Shown here in pieces: positions 24,800-35,452 of a stretch of 64,000 nucleotides of DNA. A program made the position numbers and the translations under genes. The notes under the pieces were generated by a model, which worked only from the letters and a program-made list of their open reading frames with translations, did no database searches and was not told where the DNA came from. Source of the DNA: Nitrosopumilus sp. (lineage in GTDB: Archaea > Thermoproteota > Nitrososphaeria > Nitrososphaerales > Nitrosopumilaceae); NCBI GenBank assembly GCA_965205215.1, contig OZ242041.1, positions 128,001 to 192,000 on the forward strand. The letters run 5' to 3'. Every line of letters starts with the position of its first letter. The stretch's first letter is position 1.

Positions 24800-25729
24800 T
24801 CAATAGTTTCTAATCAGCAGCTCGGTATGCCCGAGGCGCCTACCAGAATCCGAGTTGATGCAGCGGCTTGCGCTGACGCGCTCTACTGTCCACTCATCCC
24901 TTGCAAACATCTCGCTTATGACTCCAGAGTCCGAGTTTGACAGCAGCACGTGGCATCCCATCTCGTCAAGCGTGACGCACAGATCGGCCAGCCTCCTTTG
25001 GTCCTCAATCCCAAAGTCACCGCACGTGTACCTGGTAAAGCTGGCAGTCCTGCTGACTGGCATGTACGGCGGATCAAAGTACACAAAGTCCCCCCTGCGC
25101 GCCTTGCGCGCCACGGCCCCAAAGTCCTCGCACGATACGTGGACGTTGCTCAGGTTCAGTATCTCGCTTACGGCAAGTATGTTCTGCTCGTCGGCTATGG
25201 TCGGGTTTGCATACCGGCCAAGCGGCACGTTGAATTTTCCGCGGCTGTTGACGCGGTACAGCCCGTTAAAGCACGTCTTGTTCAGGAATATCAGCCTGGA
25301 CGCAGTGTCAATGTCGCCGGCGCTGCCAGGGTCATAGCCGTCACGTACGCCGTAATAGTACGACTCGGGGTCCGCCCTGTAGCCGGCCTCGTGGCCGCGC
25401 AGCGCGCGCAGGAGATCCTCAGGACGGTCACGGATCATCTGATATGCCAAGACAAGCTCCCGATTCAGGTCGGATATGTGGAATGGATGCGCGCCGTCGC
25501 GGCCGTTCTTGCCGCCCTTTGAGCCTGCCGGCGCAACATGAAAGAACAGGGCGCCTCCTCCCAGAAAGGGCTCAAAGTACCTGCCAAACGACTCCGGCAT
25601 GACGCCGCTCACCGTGGGCAGTATCTGGCGCTTGCCGCCGGCCCACTTTACAAACGGCCTCGGATGGTATCCCGACGACGCAACCTGTCTGCGCATCAAC
25701 GGGCCATCAGGACACTGGTAATTACACAT
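24800..25729 (-). CDS. dam: Dam-type (D12 class) N6-adenine DNA methyltransferase, orphan
   Basis: KWAGGKRQ, EPFLGGG, LNKTCFNGLYRVN, YFDPPY, LLSNS. Confidence 0.9.
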   Translation of the reverse strand: MCNYQCPDGPLMRRQVASSGYHPRPFVKWAGGKRQILPTVSGVMPESFGRYFEPFLGGGALFFHVAPAGSKGGKNGRDGAHPFHISDLNRELVLAYQMIRDRPEDLLRALRGHEAGYRADPESYYYGVRDGYDPGSAGDIDTASRLIFLNKTCFNGLYRVNSRGKFNVPLGRYANPTIADEQNILAVSEILNLSNVHVSCEDFGAVARKARRGDFVYFDPPYMPVSRTASFTRYTCGDFGIEDQRRLADLCVTLDEMGCHVLLSNSDSGVISEMFARDEWTVERVSASRCINSDSGRRLGHTELLIRNY

Positions 25730-25929: not shown

Positions 25930-26580
25930 CTAGTCCCACTTTGACCAAGCGGCCATCCATCTGTACGTCCACGTATTGAGCTTGCAGCCCAACGCAGCAA
26001 ACGTACACGACAGCACCGCACCAGCACCGGCGCCCAACGCGACCGGACTATTGTAGAACTTGCCTACCTGCGGTTCTATCGGCGTCATGTATGGCGGCAA
26101 TGTCGGTCTCGGATACTTGAATGCCGTTTCCAACGGATCGGCTACCGTTATCAGGTTCACCATGTTAAACAGCGGTAACGACATTCCAACCAGTACGCCG
26201 CCAAACAGTATCAGCGAGTGCTTGTTCTTCTTTGTCGCCCAGTATACCAAGTCAAGCAACATTGCCGACGGCAACCAGACTGGCGTCACTATGAAGTCGT
26301 ATGGGTAGCCGAGCGCAAACCATGCCCCCTTGGCGACCCATGTATACACGGTCATGATTAACGCGTAATACGTGGCCGTACCTGGAACGCCTGTAAAGGT
26401 AAGATAGTAGGTAGCACCAACTACAAGCATCAGCGTCTGCGATATTGAGAATACCGTATACGATGTCCAAGCCCAGTCAGTATAGAAGATGTAATCTCCC
26501 GCATTAATCGTCAGCAGCGTAGAGTTAACTGCAACCACTACTATGAACAAGTAGTGTGTACATCGTCTTAACCAGACCAT
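25930..26580 (-). CDS. amoA: ammonia monooxygenase subunit A
   Basis: MVWLRRCTHYLF...GDYIFYTDWAWTS...NTWTYRWMAAWSKWD, canonical 216-aa archaeal AmoA. Confidence 0.99.
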   Translation of the reverse strand: MVWLRRCTHYLFIVVVAVNSTLLTINAGDYIFYTDWAWTSYTVFSISQTLMLVVGATYYLTFTGVPGTATYYALIMTVYTWVAKGAWFALGYPYDFIVTPVWLPSAMLLDLVYWATKKNKHSLILFGGVLVGMSLPLFNMVNLITVADPLETAFKYPRPTLPPYMTPIEPQVGKFYNSPVALGAGAGAVLSCTFAALGCKLNTWTYRWMAAWSKWD

Positions 26581-26603
26581 TAGTTTACTGAATTAAGGAT
26601 AGG

Positions 26604-26611
26604 TATATAAA
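26604..26611 (-). promoter_or_regulatory. amoA TATA box
   Basis: TTTATATA on minus strand ~24 nt upstream of ATG (leaderless spacing). Confidence 0.7.
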
Positions 26612-27854
26612 ATTTTAGAATCAGGAACGCACTCCAGCCGTACAGAAAGGCGGCCCGCCTAGGATCACGGACATTATATGGAAAATGGGTCCTCTTTTCC
26701 CCAGGGTCTAGGCGTCCTCCGTCCATTTGGGATCGATGCTTCTGATCGCTCCGATCATTCCTTGTACCTGAATGGCACCGGCGGCGTCCCGTAGTCGTCG
26801 ACATCAAGTGAAGCGTAGCCCCGACTCGTCGTAGATCCATGTACTGCCAGAGGCCATCAGAGGATCTCCGCTTCCAGGCTGCGATGGAACCGCACCGGCT
26901 ACCGCTTGTCTGTGGGCGGCACGGCGGGGCAGTTGCCAGCAAGACATTGCGCTCAGGCGGCCCTCAAGGACGGTGCCGCCCCCTAGCGGCCCTCAAGGAC
27001 TGCGGGCCTGCACCCCCCGCCCCACCCCCCTCTTTCACCTCTTCTGCCATCCTGTCCCGCAAGGCAGGGCCCGTCGTCAGACAGCATGGGCGCAGGTGCA
27101 CCAAGCCTTCTTAGCTGCAGGCCTGATAGCTATCACGGGATTCCAGAAACATCACATCCGTGGCGCGCACAGGGACATCGTCCATGCATGTAACGAGGCT
27201 CTGCTTGAAAAACGCGGATCCTTCGTGGCGTGCCAGCCCACGTCACATGGCGCCGAGGTGCATGCCAGTGACGCACCCACCTGCACCTCCGCGACCCTGC
27301 CGCCAGAGACTCCGCGACTCGTCCTTCTTCAATACAATATGCCGCGGCGTAACTAATATCGAGTTCCTTCTCCTTCGCCTTCTCAGCCCTCCTGCGGCGA
27401 GTACGGCCAAGGCCGGCCGTCTTTGACAGGTGCGGCTATCGCTCATCCTGCCCTCGCATACGGGAGCGCGAACTGATCATCGGCGCGCACGGTCCGAGTC
27501 GTACGGAACAGTCCAGTCCCTGCACGAGCCGGGGGGAAATTCCAAGGTCCTTTGCTGTCCCGGAGGCAGGGACCCGCTTCTCGATCCCGGGCCAAGTGCT
27601 GGTGTGACTTTCCCGGCAGTCTCTTTGGCGCGGTCTTTGATGACCGGCCCGTCAGTAGTTGACTTGTGCGCCCGATCCTACGGAGACTACTTTTTGCACA
27701 ACAGCTCTGCCTGCCACGTGGTTCCAGGCATGCCTCGCACCAAGCTCAATGACAGCTTCATGAATGGACTGCCCGTGCCCAAGGGGCGGACCGGGCGACG
27801 CAGCACCCAAAACAAGAGAAAATGAAAAAGATTGAAGGTTAGCCCTTCTTGCAA

Positions 27855-28220
27855 TCAAGCGCCCTCAACGAACAGCGAGATTGCAATTGTGCCTGCCGCT
27901 ACAGCGGCGACGCTGCCGGCCACAATGCCGTTGCTGTTCTTGTTTGAGCCTTCTTCCATGACCTTTACGCAGAAGATGTAGCCTATTGCTTCGATGATGG
28001 TAAGTACGATGAATGCAAAGTGTCCACTCGGGGTCGGGTATGCCCACGGATAGTAATAGTATCCTGCTGCCGTACCTCCAAATGTTGCCAACCATGCTGC
28101 CCAGAACGATATGGTAATCAGACCGGTCATGTTCTCAACGCGCTTTCCAATCATACGTTCTACGTCGGCGCTAGAGGAACCTCCGGCACCGCCAGAACCA
28201 AACCCTTTTGGAAGAGTCAT
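27855..28220 (-). CDS. amoX: ammonia monooxygenase subunit X
   Basis: MTLPKGFGSGG...DVERMIG.RVENMTG...YPWAYPTPSGH; lies between amoC and amoA. Confidence 0.93.
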   Translation of the reverse strand: MTLPKGFGSGGAGGSSSADVERMIGKRVENMTGLITISFWAAWLATFGGTAAGYYYYPWAYPTPSGHFAFIVLTIIEAIGYIFCVKVMEEGSNKNSNGIVAGSVAAVAAGTIAISLFVEGA

Positions 28221-28588: not shown

Positions 28589-29152
28589 CTATGGGATTGA
28601 TCTGCTGTACAGCTTGCCCTCTAGGGCCATCTTGTACATCTCTGCAACATACGGGTTCTCTCCAGGAGTCTCGGCGCCCAGTTCTACCAACCGAGCGTAC
28701 ACCCTGACCACGTAGGCCAGTGCGCCCATGAACGCCACTACGACGCCCATATTGAACATCCAGTGGTTCGGCACGGCAAAGATCTCCTCTACAAACCAAA
28801 AGTGCCACATCTCGTTGACTCCAATCGTGAACATGGTCGCCAGATAGCCAAGAATGGTCATCTTCAGACCCGTGTTCATAGAGTTGTTGGGGCCTCTGAG
28901 AACCGGAACCTTTCGGTCATATATCGCGGCCGCACCCCAGCCTAGTGGGAGTGCAACAAAGTGCGAATACAGCCACCAGTGCGCAGGCGTAAACGCGCTG
29001 TCCCTGATGGATGTCTGGTGAAGTGAACCGTCAACAAAGTTGTCCACCTCGACGGATGCTGCAGTTGATCCCATCGCAATGACGATCAGCCAGATCTTCT
29101 TGAGTCTCTGGATCTCGACTTCCTTTGGGATTAGTGCTGGCATTTGTGCCAT
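28589..29152 (-). CDS. amoC: ammonia monooxygenase subunit C
   Basis: MAQMPALIPKEVEIQRL...DGSLHQTSIRDSAFTPAH...NEMWHFWFVEEIFAVPNHW. Confidence 0.99.
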   Translation of the reverse strand: MAQMPALIPKEVEIQRLKKIWLIVIAMGSTAASVEVDNFVDGSLHQTSIRDSAFTPAHWWLYSHFVALPLGWGAAAIYDRKVPVLRGPNNSMNTGLKMTILGYLATMFTIGVNEMWHFWFVEEIFAVPNHWMFNMGVVVAFMGALAYVVRVYARLVELGAETPGENPYVAEMYKMALEGKLYSRSIP

Positions 29153-29202: not shown

Positions 29203-29946
29203 GAGGAATAGTATAAGACTTACATTTTTGCAAATAAAGTATGAAATTTTTTGTATTTTATACCATAAAATGTATAATACAACATTGCATGCAACCACCA
29301 AGTTTGATGTTAATCATCAATGTTAATCATTGGACACCACAAGCGCTCCGCTTTCAGGCACGGGCCCGGGGCAGCCCGAACCGCGCCGTGAATACTGCCG
29401 GGGCGTACGCGGCACGTTAGTCGTGGTGGATCGCATCCAGTACGTTGGAGGGTGAGGGTGACTGCGGCCAAGGGTTTGCCAGCAGCAGCGACAGATCCAA
29501 CAACGGGCGGCGCAGCCGGTCCAAGCAAGCGAGGACATGCCAGACACCCGCTGCAGATTCAAACGGCAAAACTGGTCAGAACCGGAAGCTCGCACGCGTG
29601 TCTGTTGCAGGCATACGCCGTAGCGCGGCGTCACTTTTGTTCCCAAACCCCCGCCGGAACCGCCCCCGAGCCAACAGACGGACGTCTGGGCCTGCAGGCG
29701 TCTGGCACGCAAGACGGCACACCACGACCATAACCACTGAGAGACGCCCCGTGCCGCAATGAACAGTCGTCGCTATGGTTATATCAAACTGCGCCGCATC
29801 TTACGCGACAATGACGCCGAGAATGACATCAACGGCAACAGCAGCTCCAAACGGCCCGACCCAGTGGGGGAGCTTATTTTGGAACTAGCCATCCAGTCGG
29901 CAGCGCGACAAGGAAATATAATCACCACGATAACGGAGGCTGTAGA

Positions 29947-29987
29947 TTGAGTTGAGCGATAGCGTTGAGTTGAGCGATAGCGTTGAG
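29947..29987 (+). repeat. 18-bp tandem duplication at the start of the NDH-2 fusion gene
   Basis: ttgagttgagcgatagcg x2, encoding (L)SDSVE twice. Confidence 0.85.
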
Positions 29988-31826
29988 GAGGTCGACGGCA
30001 AGGCAAACTTCCTATTGCGGAAGGAGGTCACGTTCGTGATACTCGGCTCGGTTGCGGGCGCGCTGGCCATGCACGTACCCGCCATCTTCTACAGCTCCTT
30101 TGAGGAACTGTCACACGAGATATTGTCGCAGGTGCTGCCGGCCGGAGAGTCGGACGGGCACGACGACGGGGCGGGATTCCTGCTGCACATCTTTGTGTCC
30201 ACCATCATAGGGGTCGTGGCAGGCGTGATACTGCACCGCGCGCTCAGGATGGACATCTCGCGCCCTTCAATGGGCCTGATCTTCGGTCTGCTCGCAGGAG
30301 GCACGGCATTCATCATATTTGCAATGCCCATGATATACCTGATAATGTCCCCGTCGCTTGCCGCCGACGCGCACGCGGAGCAGTTTGACTTTACCACAGT
30401 CGTACTCGAGTCGTTGGGCATACACCTGCTATGGGGCCTTATAATGGGATCCGTGACCTCCTTCCTAACGCGCAGGTTTGGCGCCAATTACATATGCCGC
30501 GAGTGCGATGTGGAGTTCTTCAACAGCGCAACGCGAAAGGCCCACATAGCGCACGTGCACGGGAAGGGCTCGAAGTCAATGAGGCGCGTGCTGATACTGG
30601 GCGGGGGGTACGCCGGCGTCGGGGTACTGAACCGCCTGCAAAAGAAGTTCCACGACGACATCGACGTGAGCATAGGCCTCGTAAGCGAGTCAAACTTTTT
30701 CCTGCACACGCCAATGCTGCCGGAGATGGCCACGGGCTCCATAGAACCGAGGCATATCGCGACGCCCATCAGGAAGTTCTGCCATAGGGCCCGATTCTAC
30801 CAAGCCCGCGTAACCGCGATAGACCTCAAGGGGAAACAGGTGACCATACGCCGGACCGATGCGGACAGCACGAGCGTGCTGCCGTACGACTATCTGGTCA
30901 TAGCGTCCGGAATGAAGGCCAACTTTTTTGGAAACGAAAGCGTCAAGCACAATGCGCTCAAGATCAGAAACCTGGAGGACGCCATCAAGATCAGAAACCA
31001 CGCCATCGGGGCTCTGGAGGGCGCCGACCTGGAGCAGGATCCGGCCGCCAAGGCCAAGCTTATGACCTTCGTGGTCGTGGGCGGGGGTTTTTCCGGCGTG
31101 GAGACGGTGGGCGAGCTGAACTCGTTCGTACGCGACTCGGTCAGAAAGTACTATCACAACATACCGCCATCGTCAATTAGGGTGATCCTGGTATCGTCAA
31201 GCAACATACTTCCGGAAGTGAGCGCCCTGAGCGCGCACGCCATGTCGGCGCTCACAAAGGCGGGCGTTACGATACACATCAACGTAAGGCTGACCGAGTA
31301 CACCGACGGCGTGGCGACCCTCAACGACGGGACCGTCATAGAGACCGAGACACTCATCTGGGCGGCCGGCGGCATGGTGGACGAGATCGTGGCGAAGCTG
31401 GACACCGAGCACCACAAGTCCGGGCGCGTCGTTGTAAACTCGCACCTGAGCCTGAAGAACAACCCGGACATCTTTGCGCTGGGCGACTGCGCATTCATCA
31501 CGGATCCGCGCGACGGGACGCCGTACCCGCCTACAGCCCAGCACGCAGCGCAGGAGGCAAAGGTCGTCGCCAACAACCTTGCAAACAGGATACGCGGCAT
31601 AGAGAAGCAGGACGAGTTTACATACGACGCGGACGGGTTCGTGGCCAAGATAGGGAGCATGGAGGGAGTGGCCCTGATGAAGGGAGTGAGAATGCACGGG
31701 CTTGCGGCGTGGTTTGTATGGAAGCACTACTACCTCTCAATGCTGCCAACCACCGAGAAGAAGGTGCGCGTCGGGTTCGACTGGCTGGTGGACCTGTTCT
31801 TTCCTCGCGACATATGCAAGACGTAG
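29952..31826 (+). CDS. membrane domain + C2H2 zinc finger + type II NAD(P)H:quinone oxidoreductase (NDH-2) fusion
   Basis: ~4 TM helices with intramembrane His; CRECDVEFFNSATRKAHIAHVH; GGGYAG (FAD), YDYLVIASG, GGGFSGVE, FALGDCA, AQHAAQ. Confidence 0.88.
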   Translation: MSDSVELSDSVEEVDGKANFLLRKEVTFVILGSVAGALAMHVPAIFYSSFEELSHEILSQVLPAGESDGHDDGAGFLLHIFVSTIIGVVAGVILHRALRMDISRPSMGLIFGLLAGGTAFIIFAMPMIYLIMSPSLAADAHAEQFDFTTVVLESLGIHLLWGLIMGSVTSFLTRRFGANYICRECDVEFFNSATRKAHIAHVHGKGSKSMRRVLILGGGYAGVGVLNRLQKKFHDDIDVSIGLVSESNFFLHTPMLPEMATGSIEPRHIATPIRKFCHRARFYQARVTAIDLKGKQVTIRRTDADSTSVLPYDYLVIASGMKANFFGNESVKHNALKIRNLEDAIKIRNHAIGALEGADLEQDPAAKAKLMTFVVVGGGFSGVETVGELNSFVRDSVRKYYHNIPPSSIRVILVSSSNILPEVSALSAHAMSALTKAGVTIHINVRLTEYTDGVATLNDGTVIETETLIWAAGGMVDEIVAKLDTEHHKSGRVVVNSHLSLKNNPDIFALGDCAFITDPRDGTPYPPTAQHAAQEAKVVANNLANRIRGIEKQDEFTYDADGFVAKIGSMEGVALMKGVRMHGLAAWFVWKHYYLSMLPTTEKKVRVGFDWLVDLFFPRDICKT

Positions 31827-32052
31827 GCGTGGCGTTGCTGCCGCAGTCCAGCAGCATTTGACGCCAAGCAGGTTCCCGCCCTCGCATCTTGTGCCCGGCC
31901 TGCTTGCCGGCAGGGGTTTGGGCCATGCGTGCGCACCCGCATCCCAGGATACACCGCCGGCAGGCACACCAATGCTGCTTGGCCCGTCTGCAGGCGCCCA
32001 TACTCCGGCCGGGACGCAGCAGGAACCTGCATCCGGGCCGCAAACCAGCCCT

Positions 32053-32119
32053 TGGCGCACACGTAAGATCGGATGCCAGATGCGGCAGGAGCGCCCCTGG
32101 CGCACACGTAAGATCGGAT
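32053..32119 (+). repeat. 22-bp direct repeat (45-bp period) upstream of amoB
   Basis: tggcgcacacgtaagatcggat at 32053-32074 and 32098-32119. Confidence 0.88.
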
Positions 32120-32228
32120 ACGGAGGACGCCGGATGGCAGGAAGGGGGCTGGCAGACGCCCTCGCTAGGCACAAGCCTCAGGAAAAACATATAACGGTAT
32201 GCTATTCCCCCATATAGCAAGGGATACT

Positions 32229-32798
32229 ATGTTCGAAAAGAAGATTTTCGTATTAGGACTGGCCGCAGTGCTTGCGCTGGGAACACTTGGCTTCGACTGG
32301 GTCGAGGCCGTCATTCCTACCGCAGAGGCGCACGGCGTCCAGGCACAACTCCAGAGCCGGTTCATCAGAATCGAGGATGAGACGTTCAACAGGCAGTCTC
32401 TACAGACTGGCGAGACCCTCACATTGACAGGAACACTGGTCAGTCTCGTGGAAAGGGATCTTAGAGGATGGCTGTCCATCTTCTCAGAGTCCACGAACGC
32501 CGGCAACAGATGGGAGATGCTAGCTAGGGATCCCCCGGGCAACGTCTTTGACATTCCTGGAAACAGCCAGATAGAGTATACGCTGTCTGCAAAGGCACTT
32601 GAGGCCGGAGTGTACCACGTGCACACGCAGCTCAACGTGGCCAGCGTCGGGCCAGGACTTGGTCCGGGCCAGACAGTGGTCGTGGAGGGCGACAACATAC
32701 TCAAGCCGATTCCATATGTGAACATCGCATACCAGTCTATCATTATAGGCGTCGGGTATGTGATTACGTTTGCCACGAGACCCTGGCAAGTGATCTAA
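32229..32798 (+). CDS. amoB: ammonia monooxygenase subunit B
   Basis: Signal peptide then AEAHGVQAQLQSRF...GVYHVHTQLNV...ATRPWQVI. Confidence 0.99.
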   Translation: MFEKKIFVLGLAAVLALGTLGFDWVEAVIPTAEAHGVQAQLQSRFIRIEDETFNRQSLQTGETLTLTGTLVSLVERDLRGWLSIFSESTNAGNRWEMLARDPPGNVFDIPGNSQIEYTLSAKALEAGVYHVHTQLNVASVGPGLGPGQTVVVEGDNILKPIPYVNIAYQSIIIGVGYVITFATRPWQVI

Positions 32799-34637: not shown

Positions 34638-34970
34638 TTATCCCCGGCCCATTGCTGCGTATTTGCCAGAACGGCCCCTCAAGAAGAAGGCGCCTGCTAT
34701 ACCGCCAAAGACGGCGCCCGCTATAACGGACGCGCCCACGACGCCATCGGCGTCAAGGTATGGAGTTCCCGATCCGGATGCAGGATTGGCTTCCGCCGTC
34801 TCGATTCTCCTTCTCTGAATCTCCAATATCTCTTCGAGCGTATGAGCACCGGTCTCTCCGGCACCGCCGACATTGCCCATATACTGGGCAAATGCGATCG
34901 ATGCGGCGCCCATGGCACCAAAGAAAAAGACCGACAGCATGGTTGCTGTTAGTAGTACTTTCGTGTTCAT
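34638..34970 (-). CDS. amoZ: probable AMO subunit Z (intact copy)
   Basis: Signal peptide AFAQY, helical ectodomain, PASGSGTPYL, C-terminal TM, GRSGKYAAMGRG; next to rps15; TATA at 35003-35010. Confidence 0.7.
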   Translation of the reverse strand: MNTKVLLTATMLSVFFFGAMGAASIAFAQYMGNVGGAGETGAHTLEEILEIQRRRIETAEANPASGSGTPYLDADGVVGASVIAGAVFGGIAGAFFLRGRSGKYAAMGRG

Positions 34971-35128: not shown

Positions 35129-35452
35129 TCATCCACTGCCCATCGCCGCGTATTTGCCGGAACGGCCCCTCAGGAAGAAGGCGCCCGCTATGACGGACGC
35201 ACCCACGACGCCATCGGCGTCAAGGTATGGAGTTCCCGATCCGGATGCGGGATTGGCCTCTGAGGGCCCGATCCTCTCCCGAACCTCGATCAACGGTTCC
35301 TCGATCAACGGTTCCTCAAGCGTAGGAGGGATGGGATCTCCGTCACTGTCGACGTTGCCCACATACTGGGCAGGTGCGATCGACGCGGCGCACACGGCGG
35401 CAAAGAGAAAGACCAACAGCACGGTTGCCGCCAGTAGCACCTTTGTGTCCAT
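35129..35452 (-). CDS. amoZ: diverged tandem duplicate of probable amoZ (possibly decaying)
   Basis: Clear paralog of 34638-34970 with EEPLI duplication and 8-aa deletion in the TM helix. Confidence 0.7.
   Translation of the reverse strand: MDTKVLLAATVLLVFLFAAVCAASIAPAQYVGNVDSDGDPIPPTLEEPLIEEPLIEVRERIGPSEANPASGSGTPYLDADGVVGASVIAGAFFLRGRSGKYAAMGSG

Follow-up and report, generated by a model that had tools for sequence, protein, structure and literature searches.

An accessory NDH-2 fusion, probably relocated into the amoC-amoB gap of a Nitrosopumilus genome

The route by which electrons reach archaeal ammonia monooxygenase (AMO) is an open question, and a true dedicated feed would be important. 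This question is raised by a 64,000-nucleotide (nt) stretch of Nitrosopumilus sp. DNA (GCA_965205215.1, contig OZ242041.1, positions 128,001 to 192,000; here, the window), in which an open reading frame (ORF) occupies the space between the divergent amoC and amoB genes. The predicted product joins (i) a four-helix membrane domain, (ii) a C2H2-type finger and (iii) a type II NAD(P)H:quinone oxidoreductase (NDH-2) domain. An initial annotation, made from the sequence alone, proposed this protein as a dedicated electron feed for AMO. The comparative evidence argues that the fusion gene is not a dedicated feed; the protein is probably an accessory, position-labile NDH-2 that serves the shared quinone pool and was passively relocated beside amo. 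The genes at issue, by window position, are:

29952..31826, plus strand: fusion ORF, DUF6789-like domain of four transmembrane (TM) helices, C2H2 finger and NDH-2; 624 residues from the TTG at 29952, 618 from 29970
28589..29152, minus strand: amoC (Pfam AmoC), ATG at 29152
32226..32798, plus strand: amoB (Pfam Monooxygenase_B), ATG at 32226

Linkage of the fusion gene to amo

The 624-residue ORF, its place between divergent amoC and amoB, its co-orientation with amoB and the motifs first quoted for it (C-x2-C-x12-H-x4-H, GGGYAG, GGGFSGVE, AQHAAQ and ILVSSS) are confirmed by ORF, Pfam and contig evidence. The junctions, for which read support had been named as a check, are spanned by contigs of DNA run X5, which is possibly not independent of the window's assembly; one contig covers 30309-33000 with 12 differences, running across the TM4/finger/NDH-2 joins and on into amoB, and an overlapping contig covers 29137-30338. 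The whole amoC-fusion-amoB order is also found on a single contig in two other genomes (G195 and G271). An assembly artefact is ruled out by the X5 contigs and this repeated order. Recent foreign acquisition is ruled out as well, by a GC content (0.59) that is the same as in the neighbouring methylase gene and by a tree that nests the fusion among same-genus copies. X5 is labelled a sponge metagenome and holds long near-identical contigs, in keeping with the symbiont-type source suggested earlier.

In a family sample of 151 genomes, 138 have both amoB and amoC among the matches listed and 128 have both on one contig. In 116 of these 128 the two genes diverge and lie no more than 400 bp from each other (median 259 bp), which bears out the initial statement that they are normally adjacent in Nitrosopumilaceae and agrees with the available portions of PMC6790972 and 10.1101/2022.04.06.487334. 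The archaeal AMO cluster described in those portions is amoA-amoX-amoC-amoB with amoY/amoZ nearby; the window keeps this order, but the fusion is not a conserved member: 116 of 128 family genomes have a normal gap that does not contain it, as do 27 of 31 genus carriers. The fusion is near amoB or amoC in none of the 20 other carriers in the 150-genome family sample: eight have it on the amo contig at a distance of at least 143 kb, and the remaining 12 have it on other contigs (seven with amoC and amoB adjacent, five without a call). The 31 genus carriers comprise 27 that keep amoC and amoB 247-518 bp apart without the fusion between them, G195 and G271 with the fusion in the gap, G214 with the fusion before amoB at a contig end, and G263 without a call. 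Together with the window's own genome (G000), G195, G214 and G271 form the linked genomes. At 11 loci from 10 more distant genomes that hold full fusions, no match to amoA, amoB, amoC or amoX occurs in the 14-18 kb of each locus examined. Conserved linkage to amo across Nitrosopumilaceae, as expected of an AMO partner, is not found.

A tree of NDH-2 domains (66 rows, author-chosen from fetched loci, midpoint-rooted for drawing only) splits off the core NDH-2s on a long branch and places the four linked copies in one shallow clade (100/100) nested among unlinked fusions, a nesting that is root-independent. The sister of the linked clade is the unlinked copy of G272 (100/99), which lies 171 kb from amoC. 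Because the linked copies form one clade with an unlinked sister, nested among unlinked fusions, the amo linkage must have arisen once and recently, as a single derived event. Within the linked clade, protein identity is 87-97% and dS (synonymous divergence) reaches up to 0.19.

The fusion is also patchy in distribution. A homologue search returned 1073 matches among 8000 candidates, and the 120 matches listed have 88-100% query coverage, 49-95% identity, and Nitrosopumilus and Nitrosarchaeum names. A profile of the membrane domain finds 894 proteins of at least 414 aa; all 120 of those listed carry an NDH-2 Pfam domain, and the taxon names among the listed profile matches are six, all Nitrososphaera or Nitrososphaeraceae. 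In a class sample, the membrane domain occurs in an open frame of at least 575 aa in at least 57 of 401 genomes; among the matches listed, ahead of 158 weaker ones, family f1 supplies 31 carriers and family f3 supplies 26 out of its 78 genomes. All five f3 carriers tested have amoA, on another contig in four and about 42 kb away in one. In the phylum-wide sample of 301 genomes, 17 matched; three of these are outside family f1, with short stand-alone frames, and no long-frame match occurs outside f1. Full-length matches are found in 20 of 150 family genomes versus amoB in 143 of 150, and membrane-domain matches in 31 of 150 genus genomes. Most ammonia-oxidizing archaea (AOA) sampled carry amo without the fusion, so that presence in essentially all AOA, as expected of an AMO accessory subunit, is not observed. 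On this distribution the fusion is old among AOA and patchily kept, in two AOA families. Short separate pieces of the fusion occur in RNA contig sets X16 and X17, where DNA carry-over is possible, and none in X15; among the pieces listed from these three runs, none joins the fusion to amoB or amoC.

The initial annotation had itself named widespread, amo-unlinked occurrence in relatives as evidence against a dedicated feed, and this is what the genomes hold. A single derived event, an insert-accepting site and far faster evolution than that of the amo subunits speak further against it.

Other irregularities of amo gene order were noted. In G183 (L062:15505-17402), a fusion split by a frameshift after the membrane domain lies about 8 kb from amoB, outside the cluster. 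The amoC and amoB genes are rearranged or 1.8 kb to 400 kb apart in G065, G145, G083, G100, G007, G012 and G037. Extra amoB-like matches of 54-71% identity occur at G142:C1:1487875-1488348, G135:C1:2042516-2043001 and G065:C1:1133322-1133780, two of the three falling within open frames as long as 872 and 3504 aa.

Domain architecture and predicted chemistry

The features of the fusion ORF are:

29947..29982, plus strand: exact 18-nt tandem duplication over the start codon; G195, G214 and G271 are without it
30015..30479, plus strand: four-helix membrane domain, residues about 22-176; M40 at 30069, H79 at 30186, H158 at 30423
30489..30560, plus strand: C2H2-type finger, C182-x2-C185-x12-H198-x4-H203, between TM4 and the first Rossmann strand
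30579..31811, plus strand: NDH-2 catalytic domain with GGGYAG, GGGFSGVE (E384), S415, GD, AQHAAQE and C-terminal membrane helices

Since the 18-nt duplication adds six codons and the closest relatives of the fusion are 617-618 aa, the start may be at 29970 instead of 29952. An AlphaFold2 model (mean pLDDT, the predicted local confidence score, 78.5; 34 sequences) shows a flavoprotein fold preceded by four N-terminal helices and, at residues 179-202, a beta-beta-alpha unit.

The full NDH-2 domain claimed at the outset stands, with its activity predicted, on the fold, the GxGxxG motifs, E384, the quinone motif and NDH2_C. Pfam places Pyr_redox_2 at residues 212-536 (1.7e-39) and NDH2_C at 562-620 (32.4 bits, above the cut-off of 27.7). 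E384 is conserved in 222 of 224 homologues of at least 600 aa, drawn from 240 listed matches for the conservation alignment, and the canonical quinone motif is intact (AQHAAQE, residues 529-535). The top Foldseek ranks are the mycobacterial, Caldalkalibacillus, yeast and S. aureus NDH-2s, with the NDH-2 fold ahead of SQR, FSP1 and CoADR (E about 1e-32 versus 1e-22 for SQR). Atlas matches to bacterial NDH-2s of about 600 aa score 0.83-0.86. The solved enzymes (9MQY/9MQZ, mycobacterial; 4NWZ, Caldalkalibacillus thermarum; 5NA1, S. aureus; 4G6G, yeast Ndi1) share with the fusion two Rossmann folds, the GxGxxG motifs, a conserved Glu after the second motif, the AQxA quinone motif and NDH2_C, at Foldseek E values of 1e-29 to 1e-32, target TM-scores of 0.75-0.89 and 26-29% identity. 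Solved NDH-2 enzymes are monotopic; by contrast, the fusion adds an N-terminal four-helix integral domain and a C2H2 finger, and its family has Ser, Ala or Asn where the solved enzymes have Glu or Asp.

This last position was flagged initially as lacking the acidic residue of NADH-type enzymes after the second Rossmann strand, and the alignment agrees: S415 aligns with the Glu/Asp of solved NDH-2s, and an acidic residue is present there in none of the 224 homologues. By alignment, the non-acidic position is a trait of the whole fusion family and not peculiar to the amo-linked copy. The uncharged residue suggests NADPH use without proving it. The core NDH-2 of Nitrosopumilaceae has the same catalytic fold and is about 37% identical to the fusion, but it has no membrane domain or finger, carries Glu as the discriminating residue in all 16 of the rows that were parsed (out of 17), and stands apart from the fusions in the tree (branch 0.84, support 100/100). 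The core enzyme of G000 (C1:425640-427124, minus strand) has the acidic NADH-type residue and Gly/Asn/Asp-rich insertions. AOA carry a second NDH-2 clade, without the NADH-type acidic residue, in which the enzyme is joined to a C2H2 finger and to a bis-His membrane domain that is so far uncharacterised. This three-part architecture looks undescribed: it is not described in the literature searched, with most subscription papers and bioRxiv supplements outside reach, and the main text of a preprint on NDH-2 evolution, as available, has no 'transmembrane', 'fusion', 'zinc' or 'DoxX' (10.1101/2025.10.14.682086). The parts occur in other combinations in related archaea (membrane domain alone, membrane domain with finger, finger with NDH-2, and NDH-2 alone).

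The approximately four TM helices first proposed are found both by hydropathy (28-46, 76-94, 107-125 and 147-165) and in the AlphaFold2 model. Lys/Arg bias places both ends of the membrane domain and its short second loop inside, and because of this the finger and flavin domain are predicted to face the cytoplasm. Three intramembrane histidines had been pointed out. H79 on helix 2 and H158 on helix 4 are invariant (224 of 224) and predicted to lie in the outer half of the membrane amid G-x3-G motifs; the ALAMH histidine (H41) does not share this conservation, being kept in 109 of 118 close homologues and in none of 106 distant ones, and H95 is also variable. M40, which is nearby, is kept in 192 of 224, and stand-alone membrane-domain relatives of 180-234 aa keep both H79 and H158. 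Membrane-spanning heme wires usually have two hemes, as in cytochrome b and b561. The four-helix b-type cytochromes (cytochrome b, b561, DoxX-like) resemble the domain in having histidines on helices 2 and 4 and Gly-rich partner helices, but they have two His pairs where the fusion has one. The conservation and predicted depth of H79 and H158 would suit the His pair of a b-type cytochrome. H79 and H158 would allow one bis-His heme or one His/Met metal site, and not a two-heme wire; the architecture may hold one heme b or metal site.

The closest family of the membrane domain is DUF6789 (PF20587). At E 0.02, the query aligns with the bulk of the profile, from position 8 to 138 out of 144, eight of 31 aligned members match (best 2.9e-5), and the Atlas top match (0.90) is a cluster with 11% DUF6789. 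All scores are under the curated cut-off of 27.1 bits (query 15.4, best member 24.6); DUF6789 itself is a family without known function, and the domain is here fused to an enzyme. The membrane domain gives no Foldseek match at E of 0.001 or below, and no heme protein is prominent in the fold searches. The best VIA-align match is WbaP (Z 7.8, root-mean-square deviation 3.0, 109 aligned), within the helical-bundle background. Foldseek, VIA-align and a profile search of PDB sequences give no clear solved relative, a result that does not show a new fold. Two related forms are noted: in G375 (L121:5919-6623), a DUF6789-like membrane domain is joined to a C2H2 finger without NDH-2, and in genus g20 (L115, L146-L149), tandem stand-alone membrane-domain pairs retain both histidines.

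The finger holds up as initially read, with zinc binding putative: the C-x2-C-x12-H-x3/5-H pattern is present, the model is beta-beta-alpha, and the ligands are conserved (C182 224/224, C185 218/224, H198 224/224 and H203 222/224). The query finger is without a Pfam match, and homologues match zf-C2H2 at 20-24 bits, under the cut-off of 25.2. The finger is most likely a structural linker.

The protein is probably an accessory NDH-2 of AOA, held to the membrane by its own four-helix domain. By analogy with the NDH-2 family, NAD(P)H would reduce FAD, and FADH2 would reduce a membrane quinone at the AQHAxxQ/E site, with no proton pumping. Less firmly, the family may prefer or tolerate NADPH, and H79 and H158 may coordinate a single heme b or metal ion in the membrane's outer half.

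The amoC-amoB gap as a probable landing site

The gap and the adjoining cluster hold the following features:

29308..29329, no strand assigned: conserved 22-nt dyad-like element in the amoC-amoB gap; sole match of its pattern in G000
29330..32183, no strand assigned: inserted block, the fusion with GC-rich, indel-rich spacers, replacing the usual 35-nt stretch
29913..29923, plus strand: TATA-like box shortly before the start of the fusion, conserved across the four linked genomes; putative own promoter, assigned by eye
32048..32119, plus strand: pair of 27-nt direct repeats within the spacer that follows the fusion; G271 has a single copy
32184..32195, plus strand: intact TATA-like core promoter element of amoB, about 40 nt ahead of its ATG
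25930..26580, minus strand: amoA, left of amoC (Pfam scan)
27855..28220, minus strand: amoX-position ORF, named by position and the published amoA-amoX-amoC-amoB order; no family match

The gap was compared with others in a set of 11, author-picked and enriched for long ones. In 10 of the 11, the distance between the dyad and the amoC start is 157-159 nt (in G125, the best-scored match is elsewhere), and in five normal gaps the dyad is separated from the amoB TATA-like box by exactly 35 nt. This distance is 217 nt in G272, 301 in G273, 264 in G135, 2063 in G028 and 2857 in the window; the insert of G028, at the same spot, holds an unrelated 266-aa ORF with no Pfam match (L063:6281-7081). Because these four genomes and the window widen the same stretch with both ends kept, the 35-nt stretch takes inserts repeatedly, while its amoC-side and amoB promoter ends stay in place. 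No transposon ends or target duplications are evident at the insert, and the spacers flanking the fusion are single-copy in the genome. The TATA-like box of the fusion lies about 580 nt from the dyad, and the spacer between the fusion and amoB is 400 bp long and indel-rich.

The amoA-amoX gap of the window (26581-27854) is 1274 bp of single-copy DNA versus about 110-160 bp in ordinary relatives; in G195 this gap is 2.4 kb and holds an rve-type transposase (L035:3752-4603). By these gaps, the amo cluster is loose in the linked clade, and sponge AOA are reported, in the part of PMC6790972 available, to be enriched in transposases. In the proposed history, the fusion would have landed, in the ancestor of four close genomes, in an insertion-tolerant stretch between an amoC-side regulatory block and the amoB core promoter, its adjacency to amo being a by-product without partnership.

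The 22-nt dyad, which several lineages have displaced from amoB, is a candidate operator for the amo genes; no description of it was found in the literature searched. These displacements amount to a natural experiment on amo regulation.

Two further observations concern the surroundings. A Dam-like (MethyltransfD12) methyltransferase gene lies at 24800-25729 of the window, next to amoA, and most of the amo loci examined have the same neighbour. At 34638-34970 and 35129-35452, near the described position of the secondary amo cluster, there are two short membrane ORFs in tandem that resemble each other.

Neighbourhoods, selection and competing explanations

Elsewhere in AOA genomes the fusion keeps varied company. 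Sorted by the ORFs they have in common within 3 kb, a crude criterion that includes spurious ORFs, the 37 fusion loci make up 16 neighbourhood groups, and the gene probably moves often from one genomic site to another. Neighbours are listed for 28 of the 37 loci, and 28 neighbours, picked by eye, were scanned. DoxX lies within 3 kb of at least seven of 34 unlinked loci (G030, G258, G279, G291, G361, G370 and G381), which represent about five independent tree branches; other neighbours include NADPH-dependent FMN reductase, glyoxalase, DJ-1/PfpI, nitroreductase, DM13 and PNPOx-like proteins. DoxX genes number 1-4 per genome in the five genomes checked, and the single one of G000 is far from the fusion. 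Since DoxX and detoxification-type neighbours recur, the neighbourhoods point to redox or electrophile stress islands. The role of the enzyme is probably redox balancing, or the handling of quinone or electrophile stress, for the common quinone pool. In one subclade, a DUF7482 protein is encoded directly 5' of the fusion (L047:7569-9224; L050; L052).

Selection on the fusion is of a different grade from that on AMO. In two pairwise comparisons with few changes, dN/dS (the ratio of nonsynonymous to synonymous divergence) is 0.36 and 0.21 for the fusion versus 0-0.07 and 0-0.16 for amoA/B/C/X; by part, it is 0.55 for the membrane domain (against G195) and 0.18-0.24 for the NDH-2 domain. By these values, the gene appears functional, yet not constrained like AMO.

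Several alternatives to passive relocation are weighed against these data. Secondary recruitment would have the fusion come under amo-linked control after its move, in the sponge-associated clade of four genomes, and supply quinol for AMO start-up or turnover. Its appeal is that G000, G195 and G271 retain the fusion in the gap and G214 retains it beside amoB, that the fusion has the orientation of amoB and is under purifying selection, and that an NDH-2 route from NADH to particulate methane monooxygenase (pMMO) was reportedly described in Methylococcus by Cook and Shiemke in 2002. Endogenous quinols are also supported as the pMMO reductant in the available part of PMC6288188. However, a single origin means that the association is not repeated, a 400 bp indel-rich spacer and an intact amoB TATA-like box separate the fusion from amoB, the fusion has a TATA-like box of its own some 580 nt from the dyad, its constraint is much weaker than that of the amo subunits, and a core NDH-2 is present in the same genome. 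In addition, 'NADH' and 'quinone' are absent from the main text, as available, of the AMO complexome preprint (10.1101/2022.04.06.487334), in whose strains the fusion may be missing. On balance, recruitment following the move is unlikely, and highly unlikely is the fuller proposal of an AOA-evolved integral heme-b (or copper) NADPH:quinone oxidoreductase that was captured by the amo locus in one sponge-associated clade and feeds AMO under shared control. The narrower idea, taken by itself, of a class of NDH-2 whose integral membrane domain bears a cofactor may be entertained tentatively, at somewhat less than even chances.

An outward-facing reductase, in place of a pool filler, would make the membrane domain the point of the fusion: NAD(P)H electrons would pass from FAD to a bis-His heme or His/Met metal site in the outer half, directly or via quinone, and would then leave for an external acceptor, for example Cu(II), Fe(III), an oxidant or a DoxX partner. 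The invariance of H79 and H158, their retention in the stand-alone relatives, their outer-half location on helices 2 and 4, among G-x3-G motifs, the nearby M40 and the recurrent DoxX neighbours would all fit such an enzyme. One His pair, however, provides at most one heme per chain, where a spanning wire usually has two; a derived subclade lost the membrane domain yet kept NDH-2, with or without the finger; and the canonical quinone motif is intact. This reading is rather improbable, if a little less so than recruitment. The most improbable of all is that the fusion is a decaying passenger with little function in the linked clade; patchy distribution, the relaxed membrane-domain constraint (0.55 against G195) and the frameshifted copy of G183 would suit decay, but the frame and all key residues are intact in the four linked genomes and the dN/dS of the NDH-2 domain is low (0.18-0.24).

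An accessory, relocated NDH-2 serving the shared pool is left as the probable explanation, with certain points weighing against it. The arrangement has persisted across the linked clade at 87-97% identity, so later selection for it is conceivable, and the fusion shares the orientation of amoB. The scanned neighbours were picked by eye and related genomes share neighbours, and the dN/dS values derive from few changes. An uncharged discriminating residue is no guarantee of NADPH use, as a yeast NDH-2 with Gln at this position used NADH only, according to the part of PMC11670749 available. Lastly, because quinols are supported as the pMMO reductant, any quinone-reducing enzyme can help AMO. A generic contribution of the fusion to the quinol pool thought to be used by AMO remains plausible, and equally so for the unlinked copies and the core NDH-2.

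The fusion is annotated only as a generic oxidoreductase. A named carrier species is at hand in P0067, named Nitrosopumilus ureiphilus by its source; with this species, heme content and NADH versus NADPH use are directly testable, and such tests would give the first function for a DUF6789-like domain.

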